Source: Candidatus Aminicenantes bacterium UBA2190 (GTDB lineage: Bacteria > Acidobacteriota > Aminicenantia > UBA2199). Taken from it: a stretch of 64,000 bases of DNA. Positions 25,166-57,945 of this stretch are shown here, in pieces. A program made the position numbers and the translations under genes. The DNA lies in contig DCVK01000021.1 of the NCBI GenBank assembly GCA_002335385.1, positions 137,635 through 201,634 on the forward strand, in the 5' to 3' direction. Every line of letters starts with the position of its first letter. Position 1 is the stretch's first letter. A model generated the notes under the pieces. The model saw only the letters and a list, made by a program, of their open reading frames with translations. It was not told the DNA's origin and ran no database searches.

Positions 25166-25290
25166 AAAAAAGATATTAAAAAGTTCGAGGTTGAAGAGAA
25201 AAAAGGCATAAGGCAAAAGTGAAGGGACATCACTAGACAGACGGCATCAGGCGCCGGCCGCCGCGGAACTGGGCGGAGTTCAGGACCCGG

Positions 25291-26860: not shown

Positions 26861-27099
26861 GGTTTACGGTCGACGGTTTACGGTTTACGGGAAGAAAAGA
26901 GACGATAGGGAGACTTGAATCCAGTTTTCAATTTCCAAAAACAAACAATATCCAAAGCCAAAATTCCAATTTCCAAAAAGAAATCCCTGTTTATTTAGTC
27001 TGTCTTTTTCCTAGCGCCTTGTTCTTCAACGTCGAACTTCGAACATCGAACTTCGAACCTTGTCCAGGGATTTCACATTACTTGTCACTCGTCACTGAT
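26861..27099. repeat. composite intergenic element of four different short-tandem-repeat modules: GGTTTAC x4, CCAAAWT-type, TCGAACW x4, GTCACTC x3
   Basis: Divergent region between the aminotransferase and rlmN. The same module families recur elsewhere in the window. A 97-aa ORF here is low-complexity and spurious. Confidence 0.6.
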
Positions 27100-28204: not shown

Positions 28205-28816
28205 ATGAAATCAAAACTTCAAAAACTCAAGGGTACCTGTATCGGCATCGCCGGCTGCGGCGGGCTGGGCTCCAACTGCGCCGTGGCCCTGGCTCGCGCC
28301 GGCGTCGGCCGCCTGGTCATCGCCGATTTCGACAGCGTGACCCGTGAAAACCTCGACCGCCAGTACTATTTCCTGGACCAGGTCGGGCAGAAGAAGGTCC
28401 GGGCCCTGTACGAAACCCTGCTGCGCATCAACCCCGACATCGTCGTGGAGGCTTATGACCTGCGCCTGGGTCCCGGGGAGATCGCCCACGTTTTCAAGGA
28501 CTGCCAGGTGATCATCGAGGCCTTCGACCGCGCCGACATGAAGCGGATGATCATCGAGGCGGTCGTGGAGCATTTCCCCGACAAGTTCATCATCGCCGGC
28601 TCGGGACTGGCGGGGTACGGCGGCAACAACGAGCTGCGCACGCGCCGGCTCGGCAACCTGTTCATCTGCGGCGATGAGGTCAGCGAGGTTTCCGACGAGC
28701 TGCCGCCCCTGGCGCCGCGCGTGGCCGCGGTGGCGGCGCTGCAGGCCAACCAGGCGCTGGAGATCGTTCTGGACGACATGGAGCCGGCCCGTGGCGGCGA
28801 CGTGTGGGACGAGTGA
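28205..28816 (+). CDS. thiF: ThiF/MoeB-family E1-like sulfur-carrier adenylyltransferase (short form, no rhodanese domain)
   Basis: GIAGCGGLGSN nucleotide-binding loop and the DFD motif. Confidence 0.75.
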   Translation: MKSKLQKLKGTCIGIAGCGGLGSNCAVALARAGVGRLVIADFDSVTRENLDRQYYFLDQVGQKKVRALYETLLRINPDIVVEAYDLRLGPGEIAHVFKDCQVIIEAFDRADMKRMIIEAVVEHFPDKFIIAGSGLAGYGGNNELRTRRLGNLFICGDEVSEVSDELPPLAPRVAAVAALQANQALEIVLDDMEPARGGDVWDE

Positions 28817-28829
28817 ACGAGGAACGAGG

Positions 28830-29033
28830 ATGAAGATCACCTTGAACAACAGCGAGGTCAGCATGGCGGGCGAGTCGTTCAGCGTCCGCGAGCTGCTGGC
28901 CCTGATGAAATTCACCTTCCCGATGATCGTGGTCAAGATCAACGGCCGCCTGGTCAGGAAAGAGGACTACGAGAGGGTCTTCGTCGGCGACGGCGACAAC
29001 GTCGAGGCCATCCACCTGATCTCAGGGGGCTGA
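28830..29033 (+). CDS. thiS: ThiS-like sulfur-carrier protein
   Basis: 67 aa, beta-grasp, ending in ...ISGG (C-terminal Gly-Gly). AGGAACGAGGA RBS. Confidence 0.75.
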   Translation: MKITLNNSEVSMAGESFSVRELLALMKFTFPMIVVKINGRLVRKEDYERVFVGDGDNVEAIHLISGG

Positions 29034-29054
29034 TCAGGACTCAAGCGGACCTTC

Positions 29055-29243
29055 GTGACGCGTAACACGTGACGCGTAACGCGGAAGAAATCAAATTCCA
29101 AATCACAAGCACCAAATTCCAAATAAATCTCAATTTCCAAATTCCAATGACCCAAACGAAGGCCCCTTTGGATTCATTTCTTTGTTTTGGTCATTGGTGC
29201 TTGGAGCTTGTTTGTTATTTGGTGCTTGGAATTTGGTGCTTTA
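29055..29243. repeat. heptamer module CGTGACG/CGTAACA plus a ~155-bp imperfect hairpin built from ACCAAAT/TCCAAAT tandem units (B-type, copy 1)
   Basis: Left arm ...CAATTTCCAAATTCCAATGACCCAAACGAAGGCCCCTTTGG, loop, right arm TTTCTTTGTTTTGGTCATTGGTGCTTGG...TTGGAATTTGGTG. Lies at the convergent junction of thiS and the YkgJ gene. Confidence 0.65.
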
Positions 29244-29275
29244 GTCCAACCTGACTGTCGAGTTTAGTGACTCCT

Positions 29276-29707
29276 TCAACGGAACTGGTCCTGGGCTTTT
29301 CTCCAGCGCGAAATAAAAAAAGCCTCGACATCCTTTTCTTTATAGGGCCGGCCGAGGAATGTGTGCCGGCAGCCCATGTAGGCGGCGCACTCGAAAGGCT
29401 TGACTTCGTGGATGAGGCATTGCCCCTGCGCGGAGAGGAAGACACAGCGGCCTGCCTCATCGGCATAGTAATCGGGGACGACGGAGCCTGGCGCGGCCAG
29501 GAAGTGCGCTGCCTTGATCTTGGCCGGGGCCAGGAATTGGACATGGCTGTCCCTGCCCTTGGCCGGGATGCGCACCAGGAAGCGCCGGCAGAGCTCCGCT
29601 TCGCCGATTTTCTTGAAGGCGGCGATCTTCCTCACGTCGGCGGGGACCAGCCGGCCGGGATCGCGGCGGCAGGCGCTGACGCATTGTTCGCAGGCGCAGG
29701 CCTCCAT
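29276..29707 (-). CDS. Cys-rich YkgJ/UPF0153-family putative Fe-S/zinc-binding protein
   Basis: N-terminal CACEQCVSAC cluster plus C...C...C in the C-terminal half (CVFL...CLIHEVKPFEC). Confidence 0.55.
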   Translation of the reverse strand: MEACACEQCVSACRRDPGRLVPADVRKIAAFKKIGEAELCRRFLVRIPAKGRDSHVQFLAPAKIKAAHFLAAPGSVVPDYYADEAGRCVFLSAQGQCLIHEVKPFECAAYMGCRHTFLGRPYKEKDVEAFFISRWRKAQDQFR

Positions 29708-35400: not shown

Positions 35401-35614
35401 CCGTAACCGACTGAGCGCATCGACCTGCCGTTCTCTGGATTTGTGACGGGGCTCATTCAGCGCAAAAGGTCCCAAAACTCATAAAGATGTCCCGGTTCGT
35501 TGATTTGGGGCGACGAATGCCGGTCCCCCGGTTATCCTGGAACCTCATCAGGAGGTTCTCCATGAACGACATTAAAAAACGCGGTGGCTCCGGGCTCTCA
35601 GCCTGGATCCAGAA

Positions 35615-36706
35615 GTGAAAGCGGTGCGCAAACTCACCCGCCGATTTTTCCTGTTCTGCAGCGTTGTCTTTGTTCTTTTGCTTGGATTGCTGGCCGTTGA
35701 TTTTGCCTTTTTACGCGGCCGAACCCCGAAAATTGCGGGATCGTCCACCAGCATCGCCTCCCTGGAACGCATCACCCTTGGTGGAGTCGAGCAATGGATT
35801 CTGATTCGCGGCTGGAGGGTTTCGGACCCGGTCGTTCTGTTCCTTCACGGCGGCCCCGGCATGCCGGCAATGTACCTGGCCCACGATTTTCAAAGGGAGC
35901 TGGAAAGGAATTTTGTCATTGTCCATTGGGATCGGCGCGGTGCCGGCAAATCGTATCGTTCGGGGGTCGACGGCGATATCAGCGTCCGCCAGACCATCGA
36001 TGATACATTTGAACTCACCCGTCTTCTCTGCCGGCGCTTGAACAAGGACCGCATTTATCTGGTCGGCCACTCCTTTGGCTCCTATTTTGGCATGCTGGCC
36101 GCCTGGGAGCACCCTGAACATTATTTGGCCTACATCGGCATGGGACAAATGACCGATGGTGCGAACGGAGCGCGTGCAATTCAAGCCCAAAGGCGATTCT
36201 TGCTGCAGAAGGGGCGTGAAGCGGGCGACGATGAACTGGTCAAAAGACTGGCGGCCCCGGGAACAAAGGCCGCCGAAAAAGACCTTTTCCGATATCGCGC
36301 TGAGCTGTTCCGCTCAACCAATTGGTGGCCGATCGCCTACTCGGGCTTGACAGCCCCCGAGTACACCCTTGCGGATATTTTGAATCTGCAGAAGGGAGTG
36401 GACATGGTGGCACGCAAGATCAAAATGCGCATGAACGCGATTCCCGGCCCTCTGGCCGAGTGCGTGAGCCAGGTACGGATCCCCGTTTACTTTTTTTTGG
36501 GCCGCCACGATTACAATACGCCCTCGCTCCTGGCCGAGGAATACTTCCATTTGCTTCAGGCGCCCTTGAAAAAGCTTGTCTGGTTCGAGAATTCGGCGCA
36601 CATGCCCTTTTTTGAAGAGCCCGAATTCTTCCGCAGGCAAATGATCGCCATGGACAGAGGAACGATGCGTTTTTGGACAGCCCAGAAAAAAAAGGCGCAC
36701 GATTGA
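35615..36706 (+). CDS. alpha/beta hydrolase (proline iminopeptidase-like), secreted or membrane-anchored
   Basis: HGGPG oxyanion motif and GHSFGS nucleophile elbow. N-terminal hydrophobic segment. GTG start. Confidence 0.75.
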   Translation: MKAVRKLTRRFFLFCSVVFVLLLGLLAVDFAFLRGRTPKIAGSSTSIASLERITLGGVEQWILIRGWRVSDPVVLFLHGGPGMPAMYLAHDFQRELERNFVIVHWDRRGAGKSYRSGVDGDISVRQTIDDTFELTRLLCRRLNKDRIYLVGHSFGSYFGMLAAWEHPEHYLAYIGMGQMTDGANGARAIQAQRRFLLQKGREAGDDELVKRLAAPGTKAAEKDLFRYRAELFRSTNWWPIAYSGLTAPEYTLADILNLQKGVDMVARKIKMRMNAIPGPLAECVSQVRIPVYFFLGRHDYNTPSLLAEEYFHLLQAPLKKLVWFENSAHMPFFEEPEFFRRQMIAMDRGTMRFWTAQKKKAHD

Positions 36707-36825
36707 TCCCGGCGCGCGCAAGAAGCATGCCCTGCGCACGTGCACCCTGGACGCCGGCCGCCTCTTCGCCGCCGCTTTTCCTGCGGCCAGCGGAAACCCG
36801 CAAAAACCCGGAGCATGACGACATC

Positions 36826-36875
36826 AAGCTTGACAATCAAAGAAAGGCCTGGTAATATGACTTTTAAGTCATATG
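36826..36875 (+). promoter_or_regulatory. promoter TTGACA-N-TAATAT with an overlapping perfect 20-bp palindromic operator, ATATGACTTTTAAGTCATAT
   Basis: The palindrome overlaps the -10 and TSS, directly upstream of the TetR gene (autoregulation typical of TetR). A half-site repeat GTCATAT follows. Confidence 0.55.
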
Positions 36876-36901
36876 ACCAACAAGTCATATTAGGGAGGAC
36901 C

Positions 36902-37516
36902 ATGCCCAAAAAGACATTTCTCAACCTCAGTGCCGCAAAAAGGCAACGGTTCGTCAAGGCAGCCCGTGCTGAATTCGCGGCCCGAAACTACGCCGCCGCC
37001 AACCTGGATGAGATCTGTCGGAAGGCGGGCATTCCCAAGGGGTCCCTGTACCAATATTTTGAAAACAAGCGGGACCTTTATGATTTCATCTCCCATCAGG
37101 CGCTGGATGAAGCCTGGCACTTGCTGGGGGCTTTCCTGGAAAAGGATCCGCCCCGAGATTGTTTTGACATGCTGGGGAAAACCTGGATGTTTTTAGAAAA
37201 AATGAAGCGCGAGGAGCCCCAGCTGCTCAACATTTACTATCGCGCAGGTTATGAGCATAAACAGGTGAATCGGCCCATCGGGGAGCATAACGATGCCTTT
37301 CTCGATCGCTTTTTATCCTGGGGAATCGGCGAAGGGATGATCGATCCCAAGCTGGACCGGGTTGCGGTCGCCTTCATGATCGACGCCGTTTCCAACCGTT
37401 TTCAGGAAGAGGTGCTCTTTCCCAGGAGGAAAAAGATGCGGGAAAAGACCCCCCCGAACGATCTGGCGATGAAACTGCTGGAATTGTTGCGCCGCGCGCT
37501 GGGCCCGTTGAAATAA
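36902..37516 (+). CDS. TetR/AcrR-family transcriptional regulator
   Basis: N-terminal HTH (ICRKAGIPKGSLYQYFENKRDLY). GGGAGG RBS. Confidence 0.85.
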   Translation: MPKKTFLNLSAAKRQRFVKAARAEFAARNYAAANLDEICRKAGIPKGSLYQYFENKRDLYDFISHQALDEAWHLLGAFLEKDPPRDCFDMLGKTWMFLEKMKREEPQLLNIYYRAGYEHKQVNRPIGEHNDAFLDRFLSWGIGEGMIDPKLDRVAVAFMIDAVSNRFQEEVLFPRRKKMREKTPPNDLAMKLLELLRRALGPLK

Positions 37517-37530
37517 AATAAGGAGGAAAA

Positions 37531-38703
37531 ATGATCCGAAAATCGATTCTTGTCTACTTGCTGTGTTTGCTCACCGTCTGCTGGATGCCTGCCGCAGAGA
37601 ACTCTTATGATTCACTGGTCAAAGCTGTCGCCGGGAATGACGCGCTGGAAGGAGAAACATTGGAATACTTTTTGCGGCTGACCCCGCCGCTGCTCCAATA
37701 CCTGGACCATGCCAGTGGAAGAAAGTTGAATAAATCACTTGCCAACGTTCATTCTGTATCCGATTTAAAGCGGGCGCTGGATCGGGAAATCGGCCCGGAT
37801 TGGATCGATTTCGGAGAAGAGCTGTTCGATTTTTTCACCCCCTGCGATTCCCTGGAAAAAAACGGTGAAGCGCGCAGCATGGAAACGGCTCATTTTATTT
37901 TATCATTTCTCACCGGCACCAGGGCGGAGCAGGACATCGATTTTCTCGCCGCCAATGCCGAGAAATCCTTTGCGGCGATCGCCGCCACGATCGGCGGTAG
38001 CCTGGAAGCACCGATGCGGTTCCTGAAAAACAGCGGGGAAGCCGGCCAGGACAAGCGAAAGATCGCTGTTTTTTTCCATGGCAACAAGCAGGCGATGCAG
38101 CAAAGGACAAAAAGCAATGGCTTGGGGATTACCAATTTTGGGGCGACCATCGACGATGAGCAGTCGGTGCGCCTCACCTGCGAGATCAACGTGGTGTACA
38201 CTAATCCCTTCGCGCTGGCGATCGTTGCTCACGAAGTGGCCCATGCCGCCCTGCTTTTGGGCAGTTTCAAGCTTGAGGCCATCCAGGGCAATAAAATTGA
38301 AGGCCAGAAGGGTTTGGCCAAGGCCTTCTTCGCCGGTTATCGCCGGATCCCGGCATTCCTCCAGGAGGGAATCGGCGACCATGCCGCGTACTACCAGGGA
38401 TTTCTGGGGAAATGGCCCCTGCTCCCCGACATCGGGCAACTGCTGCGGCCGGTCCTTGGCAGCGGTTCGTACATCCCGTTGGAACAACTGATCGACGCCC
38501 ACCCCGCGATTGTCGTGAAGAAGCACAAGTATTTTTCACTTCTGGCGGCTTCGTTCATCGATTTTCTTATTCAGGAATATGGCGTGGGGAAAATGAGGGC
38601 CTGGCTGCTGGCAGGAAATGAAAAGGGGAGGGAAACCTTTGCCTCCATTTATGGCGAAGATGTAAGGGCCGTAGAAAAAAAGTGGCTGGCGTCACTGACC
38701 TAG
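37531..38703 (+). CDS. secreted hypothetical protein with HExxH motif (putative metallopeptidase)
   Basis: Signal peptide. IVAHEVAHAALLL gives a single HEXXH. AGGAGG RBS. Likely co-transcribed with the tetR-like gene. Confidence 0.5.
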   Translation: MIRKSILVYLLCLLTVCWMPAAENSYDSLVKAVAGNDALEGETLEYFLRLTPPLLQYLDHASGRKLNKSLANVHSVSDLKRALDREIGPDWIDFGEELFDFFTPCDSLEKNGEARSMETAHFILSFLTGTRAEQDIDFLAANAEKSFAAIAATIGGSLEAPMRFLKNSGEAGQDKRKIAVFFHGNKQAMQQRTKSNGLGITNFGATIDDEQSVRLTCEINVVYTNPFALAIVAHEVAHAALLLGSFKLEAIQGNKIEGQKGLAKAFFAGYRRIPAFLQEGIGDHAAYYQGFLGKWPLLPDIGQLLRPVLGSGSYIPLEQLIDAHPAIVVKKHKYFSLLAASFIDFLIQEYGVGKMRAWLLAGNEKGRETFASIYGEDVRAVEKKWLASLT

Positions 38704-38841
38704 CATCCACGTACAATCGAGTCAGTGCAAACCAAAAGAAGGTTTTCAGGCAAGGAGGTTTCAGTGCAATAAATAGTTCCCCAAGCCGGCAGCGGTTGGT
38801 TTTTTGAGTATGAAAAACGTCTGACCTACAAGGAGGTCGCA

Positions 38842-39618
38842 GTGAAGAAATTGTTTATGGTGCTGCTGTTCATGATGGCCTGTGCGGCAAATGCAGCGGA
38901 AAGCCCTTTTAAGAAAGGTACTGCCTATTTGAATTTCAATTTCCATGTCAGCGGTAAATCCTGGACCGAAATCGGGAATCCCTCCTCTTCGGTCTTTGGG
39001 GTAACCGGGCCAAACTTGCTGCCGGGCGATTCCTTGGGAGTGGACAAGCTCGCTGTCCACAACAATCAAAGCTTTGGCAACATGGCGACGGGGGTTGCCC
39101 TGGAATACGCACTCACCAATAACCTGGGACTGGAATTTCAATATTCCAATCGCTCCAACGATTATGAGGGGGTTGCCATTGAACTGGCAAAACCCGAAGA
39201 ATCCGAATCCGGCAATGGAGTAAAACATATAGTCCTCAACCACTACTATGATGCGGGGAGATTCTCGGATCGGGTCCTTTCATTGGGGTGCAACTACCAT
39301 TTGAATTTCATCGGGATCCGCCGTCTGGATGTTTACACCGGCTTCCAGCTTGGGATCGAGGAGAAGAAATTTTCCGTCCATTCACGCTTGAAGGAAAGCG
39401 TTAAACTCGAGTTCCCGGCCATGGAGAAGGAATTTTGGATCACCCCCGTCGATTATGCGGGCAATCGGGGCCTACTGGTCTATTCTCATGTCGCCGCCGG
39501 CTTGAATTTTTTCTTCACCAAGAGGATCGCAATCAACTTACGCTCGGGCTTGAAAATCGGTTCCCAGGGATATGAATCGGAGTTTTTTGGCGGCGCCGGA
39601 TTGACTGTGAAGCTTTGA
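38842..39618 (+). CDS. hypothetical outer-membrane beta-barrel protein
   Basis: Signal peptide (cleavage ~AANA-AE) and alternating hydrophobic beta-strand pattern. Confidence 0.5.
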   Translation: MKKLFMVLLFMMACAANAAESPFKKGTAYLNFNFHVSGKSWTEIGNPSSSVFGVTGPNLLPGDSLGVDKLAVHNNQSFGNMATGVALEYALTNNLGLEFQYSNRSNDYEGVAIELAKPEESESGNGVKHIVLNHYYDAGRFSDRVLSLGCNYHLNFIGIRRLDVYTGFQLGIEEKKFSVHSRLKESVKLEFPAMEKEFWITPVDYAGNRGLLVYSHVAAGLNFFFTKRIAINLRSGLKIGSQGYESEFFGGAGLTVKL

Positions 39619-39740
39619 TCATCCAACCATGGCCGCACACCTCGTCCCCAGGCTTTAGAGTTCCTGCCGGTCAGCTAACCTGTGGATGGCAGTGATGAAT
39701 TGAGGATAGACATTCTTATGAAAACAAGAAGGAGGCTCTC

Positions 39741-40412
39741 ATGAATTTCAAAAAAATGCTTTTCATCTGGTTATTGCTGTTCCCGCTGGCACTGAGCGCG
39801 GATATTTTATCGGGCGCGCGCCTGGGCTTTCAGCAGGGGCATCTGCTTTCGCGGCTGGATTTTTCCTGGAACCTGTCGCCATACAGCATCGCCGACATGC
39901 AGCGTGCCCAGGGCGGCATTTTCCTGTCGCTCCGGCTGGGAGATCATTTCGCCATCCGACCGGAATTGAACTTCACGCAAAAAGGGGTGCACGTCCGCTC
40001 TGGGGGGGCGCAGATCCCTCCGTCCGAGGAAACGCGGCGCTTTGAATTTGTCGAATTTCCGGTCAATGTTCATTTCTACCCCTTGGGAAAAAGGGGCGTT
40101 GTGACCCCGTCGTTCTTCGCCGGTCCCTACGCTGCCGCCCGGATTGGCTGGCGAATGACCGTCAACGGCAGAGAAGTTGACGTGCCCTCTTTTCTGGCCC
40201 ATTCTTTCGATCTGGGCATGATGGCGGGCATCGCCTTGGCCGCGAAAACCGGAGCCGGACGTCTCCATTGCGAGTTGCGGTATTCTCATGGGCTTAGCAA
40301 TTTTTTGGAGGACCCATGGTACGGCAGTCATCCCGAATCGACGACCATTAAAACGCGTTCCCTGGCCCTGCTGTTCGGCTTCAGCCTGCCGCTGGGCAAG
40401 AATTGGCAATAA
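39741..40412 (+). CDS. outer-membrane beta-barrel protein (OmpA-like 8-strand / porin family)
   Basis: Signal peptide, amphipathic strands, and aromatic-rich C-terminus. Confidence 0.55.
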   Translation: MNFKKMLFIWLLLFPLALSADILSGARLGFQQGHLLSRLDFSWNLSPYSIADMQRAQGGIFLSLRLGDHFAIRPELNFTQKGVHVRSGGAQIPPSEETRRFEFVEFPVNVHFYPLGKRGVVTPSFFAGPYAAARIGWRMTVNGREVDVPSFLAHSFDLGMMAGIALAAKTGAGRLHCELRYSHGLSNFLEDPWYGSHPESTTIKTRSLALLFGFSLPLGKNWQ

Positions 40413-40786
40413 AGAAAGAGTATGCGGGGGCGATTCCCGGGAATCGCCCCGTTTCCTGACGAGGATTACCTTGAAGATCAAACAGTTCGCGGCGCTTGCG
40501 TTTTGGCTGGTCTTTTTTACAGCGACTAGGTTGAAAACGAGGTATAGATTTCTGGCAACGCATCGATGGGCTTTTCAGCCAGTGGTCGGTTAAAAAAACA
40601 GTAAAAGTTCGCTGTGAGTGCAATTGCCCCATCAACTCATCTGTCCAGCAAGGAATGCGCGCTCTCCTGGATTGGGTCATTTGGCCATGGCGGCTTGGGG
40701 TTTGCTGCTTCCTTCCCACTGTCCACTGTAAACCGTCCCTGAGGACCTGTTTGCCATTTCCCGAAATTGCTGGTAAAATCGACCTT

Positions 40787-41599: not shown

Positions 41600-42558
41600 T
41601 GGGCAGTATTGAGACGGGAAAAAAGGTTCTGCAGACCGAAGCCAATGCCATTTTAAAAGCCCTCAACCGCATCGACCGGCAGTTCGAAACCGCCGTCGAC
41701 ATCCTCTTCCGCTGCCGCGGCCAGATCGTCGTCACCGGCATGGGCAAGTCGGGCCTGGTCGGGCGCAAGATCGCCGCCACTCTGACCTCGACCGGCAGCC
41801 CGGCCGTCTTCCTGCACCCGGCCGAGGCCATCCACGGCGACATCGGCATCATCCACCCCGAGGACGCGGTCCTCGTCCTCTCCACCTCCGGGGAGACCGG
41901 CGAGGTCACCCGCATGCTCGACTACATCAAGCGCCTGGGCATCAAGCTGATCGCCCTGGTCGGCAACCCGCGCTCGACCCTGGCGCGCCAGAGCGACGTC
42001 TTCATTGACTGCAGCGTCGAGAAAGAGGCCTGCCCGATCGGGCTTGTGCCCTCGGCCTCCTCCACGCTGGCCCTGGCCGTGGGCGACGCCCTCTCCATCG
42101 CGTTGATGGAGAAGCGCGGCTTCAGCGAGGAGGATTTCCGCTACTTCCACCCCGGGGGCCAGATCGGCAAGAAGCTGCTCAAGGTCAAGCATCTGATGCA
42201 CAGGGGCCGGCAGCTGCCCATCGCCGACGTCGCCGCGCGCATGAAGGGCGTGATCGGCACCATCAACGAAAAGAAATTCGGCGTGGCCATCGTGGTCCGC
42301 GATCGCGACCGCGTGGCCGGCATCATCACTGACGGCGACCTGCGCCGCCTTTTTTTAAAGGGAACGGACTTTTCCAAGGCCCGGGCCTCGTCCTGCATGA
42401 CCGCCGGGCCGCTGTGCATCAGCGAGGAAAAGATGGCCGTCGAGGCCCTGAAGATCATGGAAGACCGGGCGGTGACCTCGCTGATCGTCGTCGACGACAG
42501 GAACCGGCTGCGCGGACTGCTGCACCTGCACGACCTATGGAGAACGGAGATGATATGA
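41596..42558 (+). CDS. kdsD: arabinose-5-phosphate isomerase (KdsD/KpsF), SIS + tandem CBS
   Basis: VVTGMGKSG SIS motif and C-terminal CBS pair. Overlaps kdsA. Confidence 0.85.
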   Translation: MMGSIETGKKVLQTEANAILKALNRIDRQFETAVDILFRCRGQIVVTGMGKSGLVGRKIAATLTSTGSPAVFLHPAEAIHGDIGIIHPEDAVLVLSTSGETGEVTRMLDYIKRLGIKLIALVGNPRSTLARQSDVFIDCSVEKEACPIGLVPSASSTLALAVGDALSIALMEKRGFSEEDFRYFHPGGQIGKKLLKVKHLMHRGRQLPIADVAARMKGVIGTINEKKFGVAIVVRDRDRVAGIITDGDLRRLFLKGTDFSKARASSCMTAGPLCISEEKMAVEALKIMEDRAVTSLIVVDDRNRLRGLLHLHDLWRTEMI

Positions 42559-43118
42559 TGGACCAGAAAGAGTTGGCCAAGAAGATCAAGCTGATCATCA
42601 TGGACGTGGATGGGACCCTGTCGGACGGGCGCTTTTTCATGATGCCCAACGGCCAGTCGATCAAGTCCTTCGACGTCAAGGACGGCACCGGGGTCATTTT
42701 CGCCCGCCTGGCCGGCATCAAGACGGCGATCATCACCGGCAAGACCTCCAAGCAGGTCAAGAAGCGGGCCGAGGAGCTGCAGGTCGACGAGTACTACGAA
42801 GGGGTCTACAACAAGACCATCCCGTTCTTCGAGCTGCTGAAAAAATACAATCTGGAAAAAGAGGAAGTGGCCTATATCGGCGACGACATCGGCGACGCGG
42901 AAGTGATGGGCATGGTCGGCTTTGCCGCCGCCGTCGGCGACGCCCATCCCCTGATCAAGCGCGTCTCCCATTACATTGCCAAGCGCTACGGCGGCCGCGG
43001 CGCCGTGCGCGAGGTCATCGACTTCATCCTCGACGTCCAGGAGCAGTGGACGTCCATCTTCGCCGAGCTGAAGAAATCGAACGATTGGGAGGAGATCTTC
43101 AAGGAGATCAATTCTTAA
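42555..43118 (+). CDS. kdsC: KDO-8-phosphate phosphatase (HAD superfamily, KdsC)
   Basis: IIMDVDGTLSDG HAD motif I, GDDIGD motif. Overlaps the kdsD stop. Confidence 0.8.
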   Translation: MMDQKELAKKIKLIIMDVDGTLSDGRFFMMPNGQSIKSFDVKDGTGVIFARLAGIKTAIITGKTSKQVKKRAEELQVDEYYEGVYNKTIPFFELLKKYNLEKEEVAYIGDDIGDAEVMGMVGFAAAVGDAHPLIKRVSHYIAKRYGGRGAVREVIDFILDVQEQWTSIFAELKKSNDWEEIFKEINS

Positions 43119-43147
43119 GACGGTATCCGGTGCACGGTTGACGGTGA

Positions 43148-43336
43148 ATAAGGCAAAAGGTAAAAGTAAGAGACGAAGCACCAAATTCCAAGCACCAAAC
43201 AACAAATAATTTCCAAATCCCAAATTCCAATGTCCAAAACGAGAGCCCTTTCAGTTTCTTTTCTTTGTTTGGGTCATTGAATCATTGGCATTTGGTGCTT
43301 ATTTGGGATTTGGTGCTTGTGATTTGGAATTTTAAT
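43148..43336. repeat. B-type tandem-repeat hairpin element (copy 2), preceded by an AAGGCAAAAGGTAAAAG module
   Basis: Same architecture as 29090-29243: ACCAAAT/TCCAAAT units, core CCAATGTCCAAAACGAGAGCCCTTT, loop, TTTCTTTGTTTGGGTCATTG, and inverted units. Again at a convergent gene junction. Confidence 0.65.
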
Positions 43337-43370
43337 TCTTACAATATCTTCCTCTATCGTAGACCGTGAC

Positions 43371-44270
43371 TTACTTCTTTTGCTTCTCCATAAGGTTTGT
43401 TCCCAAATCCTTGATTAGCGCCGCCATCTCCTCGCCCTGGCCCAAGCCGCCCCAAACAAGCTCTCCCTGCATGGATACCCGGACCGGGCCGTTGTAGGGG
43501 TCGTTGATCACCAGGTTCCCCGGCCGGATTTCCGTGGCGGCGCCTTCCTTGTCCAGCCGGGCCCAGCGCTGCAGCCTGGCGCGGGCTTTGTCCGCGCCCG
43601 CGCTGTTCATGATGAACAGTTTGAAGCGCCTGCCGTTCACTTCGTAGTCGGCGCTGAAAGCCGCGCCCAGGAAATCGTGGCCCAGGAAGTTGTCCAGGAA
43701 GTAGCGCTCGGAATGGGCGATCTTGCCGCGGACGGGGAAGGCGGCCAATGCCGCCGGCAGGGCGTTGCCGCCGTTGACGGCCTGGGCGATCCTCTCGCCA
43801 AGATGGCGCAGCGCGTCCGCCCCCGCCTCGCCGAGGTCGAAGCCGTTCAGCTTGACGTAATAGGCGTCGCTGATGAAGTTCAGTACGCCCTCCTCGATGT
43901 AGCCCTCGCTGCCCAGGGCCAGGTAATCGCCCTGCAGCGGCTTCTCCGAGCTGTAGATGGCGAAGGCGTTTTCCGGCGTGCCGTGGAAGTAGATCTCGGC
44001 CGTCAGCGCCTGCCGGCTCTCATTGACGTAGTTCTGCACGGCCAGGAGCTCGAAGCCGCAGGCCAGGAAGCTCTCGGCGGCGCCGTTGATGTGCTCGTAC
44101 AGGTTGTCGGGCCGGAACGTCCGCACGTCACCGTCCCGTGTCCAGCCCTTCAGCTCCGGGAACAAGGCGGCCATGTCCGGAGCCGCAGCCGCCAGGGGCA
44201 GCGCCGCCGCCAGCAGCGCGGCCAGCAGGATGTTCTTGCTTCTTGCTTTCATGAATCCTCTCCTTCTCAA
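43371..44270 (-). CDS. hypothetical secreted protein
   Basis: Signal peptide (LLAALLAAALPLAAAAP). No recognisable domain. Confidence 0.5.
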   Translation of the reverse strand: MRRRGFMKARSKNILLAALLAAALPLAAAAPDMAALFPELKGWTRDGDVRTFRPDNLYEHINGAAESFLACGFELLAVQNYVNESRQALTAEIYFHGTPENAFAIYSSEKPLQGDYLALGSEGYIEEGVLNFISDAYYVKLNGFDLGEAGADALRHLGERIAQAVNGGNALPAALAAFPVRGKIAHSERYFLDNFLGHDFLGAAFSADYEVNGRRFKLFIMNSAGADKARARLQRWARLDKEGAATEIRPGNLVINDPYNGPVRVSMQGELVWGGLGQGEEMAALIKDLGTNLMEKQKK

Positions 44271-50257: not shown

Positions 50258-50430
50258 GTGACAGTGTCAGTGTCAGCAGGAAGCATTCAGGGCAATCAAT
50301 GACAGGGAAAGTTTAAGTGTTTGCAGGAGGTTCAAGAAGTCAAAAATAAAGCGAAAGTCAGCGGAAATTATTGGCCTTAAAGGATTTCGGTTATTTCTCT
50401 TGCTGACACTGTCACTGACACTGACACTGT
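50258..50430. repeat. inverted pair of E-type (CTGACA)n hexamer arrays flanking a ~115-bp spacer
   Basis: 50258-50280 GTGACAGTGTCAGTGTCAGCAGG in reverse orientation. 50397-50430 CTTGCTGACACTGTCACTGACACTGACACTGTTA forward. Lies between convergent mfd and a small minus-strand gene. Confidence 0.65.
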
Positions 50431-50447: not shown

Positions 50448-50810
50448 CTAAGGCTTGGTGATCTCCAGGGTCTCCTTCTGCAGTCCGTGCTTCGGGCACT
50501 TCCTGAGGACGCGGATCTCCCCCTTGTCCTTTCCGGTCAAGGAGACGACCAGGTCGAGCCGGTAGACGCCTTCCTCCGTCAGTTCCCACTGGCCCCGCTT
50601 TTCGATCTTCAGCCCTTCCGTTTCCAGGATCGTCTCCGCGATGGCTACCGGGCAGCGCCGGTGTATGCACTCGACGAACAATTTCACCTGGAACTGGTCC
50701 GCTTTGCCCTTGACCAGCGGTCCGGTCTCGCTGTAGACGTAGCAGGGAAGCAGTTGCGACATGCTCCCCATGACCAGCAGCGTCATTATCAATAATATGG
50801 GTCGTTTCAT
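50448..50810 (-). CDS. small secreted/lipoprotein-like Cys-containing hypothetical protein
   Basis: Signal peptide MKRPILLIMTLLVMGSMSQLLPC. 120 aa with 4 Cys. Confidence 0.5.
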   Translation of the reverse strand: MKRPILLIMTLLVMGSMSQLLPCYVYSETGPLVKGKADQFQVKLFVECIHRRCPVAIAETILETEGLKIEKRGQWELTEEGVYRLDLVVSLTGKDKGEIRVLRKCPKHGLQKETLEITKP

Positions 50811-51885: not shown

Positions 51886-51998
51886 AGGGAAAGGCAGAGG
51901 GAAGAGAGAGGGAAGAGAGAGTGGAAAGGCCCTTTCAGGACATCTTTCCCACTTCGTCTTCCCTCTGTCTTTCCCTCACTCTTCCCTCATTCTTCCCT
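51886..51998. repeat. D-type 11-mer (GGGAAGGCAGA / GGGAAGAGAGA) tandem-repeat hairpin
   Basis: Forward arm of ~4 units. Loop CCCTTTCAGGACAT. Reverse-complement arm CTTTCCCACTTCGTCTTCCCTCTGTCTTTCCCTCACTCTTCCC. Lies between the 3' end of the DUF5916 gene and the start of the NYN gene. Confidence 0.65.
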
Positions 51999-56906: not shown

Positions 56907-57028
56907 GGGAGGGTTTGAAACCCTCCCCTACGTGAAGATGTTTCTTTTCCTCCTGCAACCACTACCACTATCACTACCACTGATACCTGTAATGCCTCTT
57001 GCTGACACTGACACTGTCACTGACACTG
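56907..57028. repeat. J-type hairpin GGGAGGGTTTGAAACCCTCCC+CTACGTGAAGA, F-type (CCACTA)4, and E-type (CTGACA)4 modules
   Basis: Stem-7/loop-7 hairpin followed by the CTACGTGAAGA tail, as at 57850-57881. The F and E modules are near-identical to those at 55268-55337. Followed by TTGACG...TATATAAT promoter-like boxes before gene 57100. Confidence 0.65.
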
Positions 57029-57762: not shown

Positions 57763-57945
57763 GGGCGGGCACGGGGGCCCGCCCCTACGGAAATATTGCG
57801 GCAGGCTTACACCCCAAGGAGGTTAAACCCTCCTTACATGGAAAAATGCGGGAGGGTCACAGACCCTCCCCTACGTGAAGAGACAATGGGAACCTGCCGG
57901 TGTAGTCCTCCAGCTCTTGCTGACACTGACACTGTCACTGACACT
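57763..57945. repeat. three consecutive GC-stem hairpins each followed by CTACG (J-type), then an E-type (CTGACA)4 module
   Basis: GGGCGGGCACGGGGGCCCGCCC-CTACGG. AAGGAGGTTAAACCCTCCTT. GGGAGGGTCACAGACCCTCCC-CTACGTGAAGA. CTTGCTGACACTGACACTGTCACTGACACT at 57915-57945. Confidence 0.65.

Follow-up and report, generated by a model that had tools for sequence, protein, structure and literature searches.

The window analysed here, a 64,000-nt stretch of DNA from Candidatus Aminicenantes bacterium UBA2190 (contig DCVK01000021.1, positions 137,635 to 201,634 of the forward strand, numbered from its first letter), contains two long imperfect palindromes built of tandem heptamers, c1 (29090-29243) and c2 (43177-43336). 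We lean, by a little, towards the view that c1 and c2 are copies of a dispersed, multi-copy, non-autonomous and non-coding palindromic repeat family, which has diversified into host-specific subfamilies, erodes one copy at a time and survives for the most part 3' of genes. Whole units have been copied to new intergenic sites, and copies at non-orthologous sites share the same left/right asymmetries. The copies decay individually, and nothing maintains the pairing between the two arms of one copy. They persist mainly where they are least harmful, just past stop codons and often at convergent junctions, sometimes making up nearly the whole spacer.

Two full elements and a half-copy in the window

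The elements and the repeat modules that adjoin them are as follows.

29090-29243, no strand: c1, full heptad-built imperfect palindrome; left arm ~29090-29160, apex ~29161-29176, right arm ~29177-29243
43177-43336, no strand: c2, full heptad-built imperfect palindrome; left arm ~43177-43243, apex ~43244-43265, right arm ~43266-43336
26928-26982, plus strand: decayed half-copy, left arm only, in the divergent aminotransferase/RlmN spacer; weak match to the arm model
43119-43370, no strand: whole kdsC-DUF6599 spacer, with outer palindromic layers around c2 (ACGGTNN-type heptamers and GTAAGA...TCTTAC)
29054-29080, plus strand: 14-nt unit CGTGACGCGTAACA, present twice directly 5' of c1 (Tandem Repeats Finder); a separate short-repeat module within the c1 spacer

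c1 and c2 were the two top-ranked and longest inverted repeats of the window (arms of 58 nt and 50 nt, 72% complementary); in the inverted-repeat search repeats I2 and I3 cover c1 and I1 covers c2. The heptamer motif had 9 matches in the window against 0.22 expected. The GC content of the two elements was 36-37% against 61.9% measured for the window; an earlier note on this DNA had given ~35% for the elements and 64% for the genome. The left arm of c1 is composed of 46% A, 28% C and 4% G, and the 5' arms of the c1 and c2 transcripts contain 28-30% C and 4-7% G.

A hidden Markov model (HMM) of the arm was trained solely on copies in other contigs and then run over the window. It matched exactly four arms, with E values from 5e-15 to 1.5e-11: 29091-29168 (+) and 29244-29186 (-) in c1, and 43173-43251 (+) and 43333-43268 (-) in c2. 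A further, weak match at 26941-26982 (E 0.089) corresponds to the truncated single arm that the earlier note had placed at 26928-26982. The positions and the architecture that the note had described for the two full elements were borne out by the sequence, by the ranking of the inverted repeats and by the predicted folds. The window carries two full copies and one half-copy in 64 kb; in the related locus L146 (L numbers are our handles for loci and contigs from other assemblies) two full copies lie on a 12-kb contig. The outer layers of the c2 spacer, GTAAGA...TCTTAC and the ACGGTNN heptamers, also occur in the related copies L209, L211, L035 and L134.

Folding of both strands, which the note had proposed as a check, gave long imperfect hairpins on the plus and the minus strand that were equally stable. 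As RNA, 29055-29260 folded with -71.7 kcal/mol (z -6.1) and 43150-43350 with -62.7 kcal/mol (z -5.6); none of 200 dinucleotide shuffles was as good in either case. The minus strand of c1 gave -71.4 kcal/mol, and the minus strand of the full 252-nt kdsC-DUF6599 spacer gave -78.2 kcal/mol (z -4.8), with end-to-end pairing that joined the first bases to the last. Folded as single-stranded DNA, c1 had -32.8 kcal/mol (z -5.2).

Anatomy of the family

Arms, 410 in number, were aligned by anchoring on AAGCACCAAAT, and a frequency matrix was derived. The arms are strictly periodic with a period of 7 nt. The tandem heptamers described in the earlier note were confirmed; their unit is better written AAATYCC (that is, CCAAAT plus one free letter), with a CCAAA core conserved at 75-97% and two free positions, and is joined by a recurrent special unit, AAGCACC, which serves as the signature of the arms. 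The G content of the arms is about 5-10% family-wide. The outer boundary is sharp. It lies two heptads beyond AAGCACC, reads AAATTCCAAAT... in the family consensus and is followed on the outside by random composition. Inward of the outer arm there are further heptads, then a CCAATGACC-AAAAC stem and finally a variable apex, which in some copies houses unrelated repeats. The complete unit measures ~130-170 nt and is AT-rich regardless of the GC content of the host. The free positions of the heptad follow the host: AAATCCC prevails in GC-rich contigs, AAATAAC or AAATTAC in AT-rich ones.

An inverted partner was present on the inward side of ~44 of the 54 arms that had been located by a single arm (median score 32 inward vs 14 outward), and we conclude from this that the palindrome is intrinsic and not an artefact of the search. 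About 17% of the arms were solo. Many contigs carry 2-4 arms. Similarity between arms of different elements was higher within a contig (score 0.55) than between contigs (0.42), which indicates host-specific subfamilies. The Aminicenantes-type subfamily comprises 20 copies with 70% column identity; its polarity is conserved, with the same differences between left and right arms across loci.

Several variants of this plan were observed. In L199 (7009-7277) and L218 (1134-1453) one arm has grown to 4-7 tandem higher-order repeats (period ~56 nt in L218), giving a satellite-like, strongly asymmetric hairpin. Nested in or beside the apex of some copies are, for example, GTCATTGCGAGCGAAGCGTGGCAATC..., GTCATCCTGAGCGAAGCGAAGGATC..., GGGGAGAGGGTAAGGGTGAGGGG and GTCATCCCCGCGAAGGCGGGGA (L121 10700-11400; L120 12050-12290; L152, L219, L223 and L235), which are widespread short repeats. 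The viral contig L121 has three element copies in a row. Another viral contig, L122, contains direct, non-hairpin AAGCACCAAATTCC units 5' of phage genes (2040-2250 and 5930-6060), behind which come further short arrays (AGTGATG, GATTAC, GAGCAC, GACGCAC); this virus thus uses the repeat vocabulary of the element without its palindrome. In the window itself, inverted AGGGAAG(AG) arrays at 51886-51998 form a ~110-nt hairpin whose apex, GGAAAGGCCCTTTCAGG, resembles the c2 apex, GAGAGCCCTTTCAG; an apex motif may be shared between different arm types.

Copying and loss of whole units

c1 is 84-85% identical over 157 nt to the copies 5' of kdsA in L131, L146 and L049, and 69% identical to them in reverse orientation. 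For c2, the L035 copy at the aminotransferase/RlmN junction shows 87% identity. These matches show that whole units are common to non-orthologous sites.

Orthologous junctions were compared among relatives with 73-96% protein identity. The spacer of L146 that corresponds to the site of c1 (thiS/CxxCxxCC) has other heptamer modules and no CCAAAT element, and the L049 spacer 3' of kdsC also lacks a CCAAAT element. Conversely, a copy is present 5' of kdsA in L146 and L049 and none is found there in the window. The divergent aminotransferase/RlmN spacer has full copies in L035 and L146, which are of opposite polarity and belong to different sub-subfamilies; the copy in the window is the decayed half. 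Alignment of 'filled' with 'empty' orthologous spacers gives no clean insertion.

The organism is present in samples under ENA ERZ27315067/71/72, SRR636569 and JGI 3300001580, 3300002220 and 3300035454. Within the population of the host c1 was found identical in another assembly (L243) and c2 in five independent assemblies. A population variant, L249, has an 18-nt deletion between two CCAAAT units, and three contigs terminate within an arm. L244 (Logan SRR636569; 3872-4165, corresponding to the window from 29076 onward) matches the window at every position over 3872 nt (100% identity) and then switches exactly within a CGTGACGCG repeat. Past the switch its identity in the downstream gene is only 79%, and it contains arrays of GTTCGAC and GGTAAAC together with a lone right arm of the CCAAAT type. 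The switch marks either a recombination joint or a chimeric assembly across a short repeat. The repeats mark sites of contig breakage or chimerism (L244, L248, L251, L252).

Pairing between the two arms

The two arms of a copy are ~80% complementary, their mismatches being 325 G·T, 310 A·C and 856 others. The register of the hairpin is real, since registers slid out of place pair at 51% or less. The pairing of individual copies was then compared with that expected without selection. In a 62-pair hairpin model 87.9% of the cells were paired, against 89.4% when the 3' partners were re-dealt among the copies, and 500 of 500 shuffles reached or exceeded the observed value. The model had 4 compensatory pairs, where the shuffles gave 9.0, and a covariation score of 0.074 vs 0.100; RNAalifold found 25 consensus pairs and 0 compensatory changes. 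A lack of base-pair covariation between the arms was one of the outcomes that the earlier note had named beforehand as refuting its proposal, and this outcome was observed.

The complementarity of a copy's left arm to its own right arm (30.0) did not exceed that to the right arms of other copies (34.1), the own arm scoring higher in 4 of 20 copies. Family-wide there was a small excess for the own arm (56.2 vs 48.9), for which host-specific subfamilies can account. No G·U bias on the transcribed strand was detected: oriented by transcription in tandem contexts, the mismatches were 145 G·T vs 130 A·C. Because all these tests for selection on the hairpin were negative, we regard the pairing as inherited from the family consensus and eroding in each copy.

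Genes around the elements

Both full elements lie where two transcription units converge. The neighbouring genes are listed below.

28205-28816, plus strand: thiF (Pfam ThiF)
28830-29033, plus strand: thiS (Pfam ThiS; a called gene in L243); its stop is 56 nt before c1
29276-29707, minus strand: CxxCxxCC-domain gene (Pfam PF03692); converges on c1, its stop 32 nt past c1
42555-43118, plus strand: kdsC-like gene of a HAD hydrolase (Pfam), the last of kdsA-kdsD-kdsC; ends 58 nt before c2
43371-44252, minus strand: DUF6599 gene (Pfam PF20244); converges on c2, its stop 34 nt past c2

The start of kdsC was picked from the translation, and 187-aa gene calls are present in L245 and L247. The 293-aa DUF6599 product had an exact match in 10 contigs. 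The convergent placement described in the earlier note is thus supported by Pfam at both junctions: thiF-thiS faces the CxxCxxCC gene, and kdsA-kdsD-kdsC faces the DUF6599 gene.

Gene contexts of the other copies were taken from a home-made caller (composition plus amino-acid log-odds), which was checked against the Pfam-supported genes of the window; the counts are approximate, because the caller misses short genes such as thiS. The 75 classifiable copies were distributed over 49 tandem, 18 convergent and 8 divergent junctions, and background spacers of at least 150 nt over 204 tandem, 53 convergent and 98 divergent ones. Convergent junctions were therefore modestly enriched (24% vs ~15%) and divergent junctions depleted (11% vs 28%). 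A gene 3' end was touched by 67 of the 75 copies (89%). In tandem junctions the median gap between the stop codon and the element is 27 nt, and that between the element and the next start is 51 nt. The association with convergent junctions that the note had drawn is real in this lineage, 8 of the 16 copies of the window's own subfamily lying at such junctions, and shrinks to the modest enrichment family-wide (18/75 vs the ~15% background).

Distribution across genomes and metagenomes

Genomes, one per species, were scanned with the 15-mer AGCACCAAATNCCAA. This word is too short and gave many chance matches, from which real copies were separated by blastn and the arm HMM. Among the matches listed, 57 of 119 genome loci contained real arms (blastn, direct reading and arm HMM). 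Their record titles name at least 12 phyla, including Aminicenantes, Acidobacteria, Planctomycetota, Bacteroidota, several Patescibacteria classes and Desulfobacterota, and also Myxococcota, Omnitrophota, Verrucomicrobiota, Chloroflexota and Proteobacteria. Some carriers are long-read metagenome-assembled genomes (MAGs; L030, L034, L037). Two isolate genomes, Gracilimonas and Aequorivita, had short versions only. A two-arm pattern scan found the element in at least 120 metagenome contigs with a GC content of 27-68%. Both the abundance and the taxonomic range are lower bounds and do not amount to a census. The nearest relatives of the window organism by protein identity, among the matches listed, were 'Aminicenantes QR_Bin.23' and 'Acidobacteria Prado013' (KdsC 96%, KdsD 85%, aminotransferase 91%). 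The earlier note had offered, as one of two readings, that the elements are similar to repetitive extragenic palindromic (REP) sequences or bacterial interspersed mosaic elements (BIME). This held as an analogy, in so far as further copies were found in relatives, other genomes and metagenomes, which make up a dispersed intergenic palindrome family whose presence varies between relatives.

Scan matches in Nostoc, Scytonema and Calothrix were rejected as chance matches within genes. The whole window gave no Rfam match at the gathering thresholds; matches with E up to 10 were to plant and animal miRNA-precursor models, all far below threshold, and were discarded as look-alikes. Such repeats can be mistaken for structured RNAs or miRNA-like hairpins. 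A full-text literature search by element sequence returned unrelated primers only, and no paper describing the element was found.

It is possible, and we put it forward tentatively, that the AAGCACC + AAATYCC palindromes are one homologous family common to more than 10 phyla with host GC of ~27-68%, whose AT-richness is kept against the composition of the host.

Spread of the repeats and points against a dispersed family

One possibility for the spread of the repeats is that a trans-acting enzyme recognizes the hairpin or the heptads, in the way in which the REP-associated tyrosine transposase (RAYT) acts on REPINs, the REP doublets; alternatively, heptad arrays may undergo recombination or gene conversion with one another. 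Slippage of heptads would add length variation. Transcription from either side would give the same ~60-bp imperfect AU-rich hairpin, which could secondarily serve as a 3'-end barrier or stabilizer. A bidirectional 3'-end hairpin role at convergent junctions is plausible; it looks like a by-product or an exaptation and not like the reason for the conservation of the sequence.

Several results weigh against a dispersed repeat family, and against its range across phyla. At the boundaries of 124 elements the best direct repeat equalled that of shuffled flank pairs, so there was no sign of target-site duplication, and no target motif was found at the insertion boundaries. The 25 most frequent Pfam families among 148 proteins that flank elements included no transposase; these proteins represent 232 ordinary families, and no neighbouring gene recurred. 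An autonomous insertion sequence (IS) with the same termini was not seen in the 1.56 Mb of fetched loci, and neither a mobilizing enzyme nor a parent was found there. The element was almost absent from viral contigs, with 3 matches in 2.9 million, and phages are therefore no obvious vector between phyla; reference plasmids and phages gave no BLAST match, to which the low-complexity filter may have contributed. The phylum names come from the record titles of MAGs, of which some may be mis-binned (L016, 'Clostridia', looks Aminicenantes-like). Both big scans demanded AAGCACCAAAT, and its universality is partly a matter of ascertainment, as is part of the apparent cross-phylum identity; 5 of 39 CCAAANN arrays in the fetched DNA lacked it. 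The gene caller behind the context counts is crude. Finally, conservation follows the phase of the heptad, with CCAAA fixed and two positions free. This points to a constraint on the sequence, which pure neutral decay fails to explain. That CCAAA is conserved in phase is an argument for a significance of the sequence, be it to the machinery that copies it or to a factor that binds it; the pairing itself is apparently not what is conserved.

Alternative explanations

The strongest alternative, which we nevertheless judge unlikely, is that the elements are dedicated bidirectional terminators or 3'-end mRNA-stabilizing hairpins, which block RNA polymerase or 3'-exonucleases, and that the family exists by selection for this function. 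Folding is equally good on the two strands, a gene 3' end adjoins 67 of 75 copies, and the placement data (convergent junctions enriched, divergent ones depleted, half of the window's own subfamily convergent) agree with it. Like bidirectional intrinsic terminators, the elements are symmetric hairpins that separate convergent genes and fold the same way on either strand, and their flanks are mildly A-rich upstream and T-rich downstream. Also in its favour, a consensus scan for a GC-rich stem plus U-tract found no canonical intrinsic terminator in either junction, and such terminators were not enriched in 20 kb (25 vs 23.3 expected). A role in transcript stabilization has been proposed for the heptamer hairpins of cyanobacteria (PMC2670836). 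Against a terminator function stand the lack of covariation, of arm co-evolution and of a G·U bias on the transcribed strand. Canonical terminators have a short GC-rich stem and an immediate U-tract and show no sequence conservation across loci or taxa, whereas the stems of the element are ~60 bp long, imperfect and AU-rich (36-37% GC), are not GC-rich at the base and run out in GGAAUUU(U), with only AAUUU(U) behind them. The element also occurs at tandem junctions, where it sits between a stop 27 nt upstream and a start 51 nt downstream, and as full copies between the divergent aminotransferase and RlmN genes of L035 and L146. Close relatives lack it at the two junctions of the window, and ~17% of the arms are solo. 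Of the earlier note's proposal, 'bidirectional terminators or REP/BIME-like' elements, the second half stands as an analogy, and the terminator half is weakened by the AU-rich stems, the missing covariation and the divergent and tandem copies.

Less probable still is that the arms are tandem binding sites for a protein, on double-stranded DNA or on single-stranded nucleic acid, in which CCAAA/TTTGG is read every 7 nt and the palindrome consists of two converging arrays. A transposase-like enzyme, a ribbon-helix-helix or nucleoid protein and a cold-shock-domain protein would be candidates. The omega repressor of inc18 plasmids binds WATCACW heptad arrays, and cold-shock domains, which cover ~7 nt, have been linked to ATTGG/CCAAT. 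The phased conservation (CCAAA at 75-97%, the other two positions varying and drifting with host GC), the conservation of sequence and not of pairing, and the existence of direct arrays and solo arms (L064, L122 upstream of phage genes, L199, L218) fit such arrays. However, no candidate protein and no recurrent neighbouring gene were found among the 148 flanking proteins, and copies are dispensable at given loci.

We consider it improbable that the elements are Rho-dependent terminator modules, whose 5' arm would be a 65-70-nt C-rich, G-poor, unstructured tract similar to a Rho utilization (rut) site and whose following hairpin would be a pause site. Richness in C and poverty in G are properties of rut sites, and the 5' arms have them (28-30% C, 4-7% G; ~5-10% G family-wide), together with regular CC dinucleotides, a position after stops and a symmetry that yields the same tract both ways. 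This is an argument from composition alone, as any CCAAA array is C-rich and G-poor. Moreover, transcription of the 3' arm would lock the tract in a stable hairpin, the sequence of Rho sites is normally not conserved, and copies occur at divergent junctions.

A classical cut-and-paste miniature inverted-repeat transposable element (MITE), derived from an insertion sequence with ~40-bp terminal inverted repeats, is at least as improbable. Bacterial MITEs include Correia, ERIC, RUP and Nezha. The element shares with them a size of 100-200 nt, conserved inverted termini (~40 nt) around a variable interior, hairpin-forming transcripts, AT-richness, an intergenic location, many copies and presence/absence polymorphism between relatives, and the repeats nested in the apex could be read as nested insertions. 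It differs in that its termini are tandem heptads, in having no target-site duplication above control and no target motif, and in that no parent IS was seen in the fetched loci; to our knowledge its distribution is also far wider than that of any single MITE family. No transposase was found between arms or in the frequent neighbouring protein families. The one far-apart pair examined, arms 2.2 kb apart in L122, was rejected as an autonomous element because it proved to be a chance match inside a phage structural gene. As noted above, filled and empty orthologous spacers cannot be aligned as clean insertions.

A small open reading frame (ORF) was ruled out, as the 7-nt periodicity together with indels is incompatible with coding, and readings as IHF, CsrA, Hfq/Sm-site, telomere-like or integron attC sequences were dropped as loose resemblances only.

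Relation to known repeats

The dispersed palindromic repeat family that we favour resembles several described systems. The short tandemly repeated repetitive (STRR) sequences of cyanobacteria are intergenic tandem heptamers able to form hairpins, with proposed roles in transcript stability (PMC2670836), and heptanucleotide units are the commonest long simple repeats in prokaryotes according to Mrazek (2007) as summarized in PMC4679880. The element is likewise a tandem 7-nt repeat in non-coding DNA that forms hairpins. It differs from them in that STRR are simple arrays of one unit in filamentous cyanobacteria, whereas the element is a ~150-nt composite with an ordered series of different heptads, conserved polarity and a defined outer boundary, which is copied whole. 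It is found in many non-cyanobacterial phyla, and the closest relatives of the window, among the matches listed, are Aminicenantes/Acidobacteria MAGs. One STRR unit, TTGGTCA, resembles the GGTCATTGG inner stem of the element.

A REP is described in PMC3733652 as a palindromic unit of 20-40 bp with a GTAG or CGTC tetranucleotide at one end, and the roles suggested for REPs and REPINs in that account and in PMC3337134 are termination, mRNA stability and DNA topology. As these accounts present them, they are, like the element, dispersed extragenic palindromes in many copies, mostly downstream of genes, without target-site duplications and with lineage-specific subfamilies. REPINs consist of two inverted units forming a long hairpin, and so does the element (partner in ~44/54 arms, significant folds). 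The cognate RAYT of such systems is a Y1/HUH transposase whose single-copy gene usually has the repeats on its flanks. The element differs from REPs in being AT-rich and not GC-rich and in having arms that are 60-70-nt heptad arrays in place of 20-40-bp units. REPINs are reported in the same accounts to be vertically inherited and lineage-specific, whereas similar sequence of the element spans phyla. Neither the family consensus nor its boundary contains a GTAG/CGTC tag; neither tetranucleotide occurs in c1, and in c2 there is one GACG, confined to the left border. Because no such tag was present and no RAYT was found (no transposase family among the 25 most frequent Pfam families of the 148 flanking proteins), we do not count the elements as members of the REP family.

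Heptamer direct repeats of TAACTGA occur in intergenic regions of Beggiatoaceae, Cyanobacteria and Bacteroidetes, and horizontal spread is suspected (PMC4679880). They are a precedent for an unexplained heptamer shared by distant phyla. They differ in being short direct repeats just upstream of start codons, whereas the arrays of the element are inverted, mostly downstream of genes and of other sequence. Since the defining features tested, the REP tag, the target-site duplication of MITEs and the stem plus U-tract of terminators, were all absent, we place the element in the general kind of dispersed intergenic palindromic repeats and in no named family.

Other features of the window

Nearly all longer spacers of the window are built of short tandem arrays with units of 6-14 nt, often mirror-symmetric about their centre. 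The units are AAAAGGC, TTGGCC, GGTTTAC, CTTCGAA, CGTGACGCGTAACA, AGTGAAA, GAAAAGT, AGTGACG, AGGGAAGGCAG, AAAGGCA, GTTCGAC and ACCACT, and the arrays lie at 25201, 25301, 26861, 27024, 29054, 46623, 46761, 54713, 54767, 55209, 56115 and 56958. The CCAAAT element is one module type within this genome-wide habit of spacer arrays.

A second repeat family, CTTGCTGACACTG(A/T)CACTGACAC (hexamer CTGACA repeated 4-5 times), has 8 occurrences against 0 expected, at 50262, 50399, 50874, 50938, 55308, 56191, 56998 and 57916. Four of them are single copies just 5' of plus-strand genes, where promoters, operators or leaders are typically found; the remaining four make up two inverted pairs, which flank a small minus-strand ORF at 50448-50810 that has no Pfam match.

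At 56907-56938, 57770-57800 and 57843-57875 there are small GC-rich hairpins followed by CCTACG(TGAAGA), e.g. GGGAGGGTTTGAAACCCTCCCCTACGTGAAGA; all three copies are confined to 1 kb and match CCCTCCCCTACG exactly or with 1 mismatch. Read on the opposite strand, each is a GTAG-tagged palindrome, the classical REP signature.

The region ~35600-40450 has a lower GC content, ~46-60% per 200-nt bin and mostly 50-55%, vs 62%. It lies between an AraC-type regulator and kdsA and encodes an alpha/beta hydrolase, a TetR regulator, an unknown protein and two outer-membrane beta-barrel proteins. The distance from thiS to kdsA is much shorter in L146 than in the window, and for this reason the region may be an accessory island.

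Implications

The family has probably been overlooked because it occurs mostly in uncultured lineages and breaks short-read assemblies. Its existence raises the questions of what copies a 150-nt palindrome without target duplications, why a 7-nt CCAAA lattice is conserved against the GC pressure of the host, and whether the elements act as 3'-end structures in genomes that apparently have no canonical terminators. If the palindromes are homologous across phyla, an abundant class of bacterial non-coding DNA has gone unnoticed. Such homology would mean either repeated spread of a non-autonomous element between phyla or a partner, an enzyme or a binding protein, that acts in trans, is widely conserved and recognizes CCAAA at 7-nt intervals, and in either case the elements would represent a previously undescribed pan-bacterial class of non-coding DNA.

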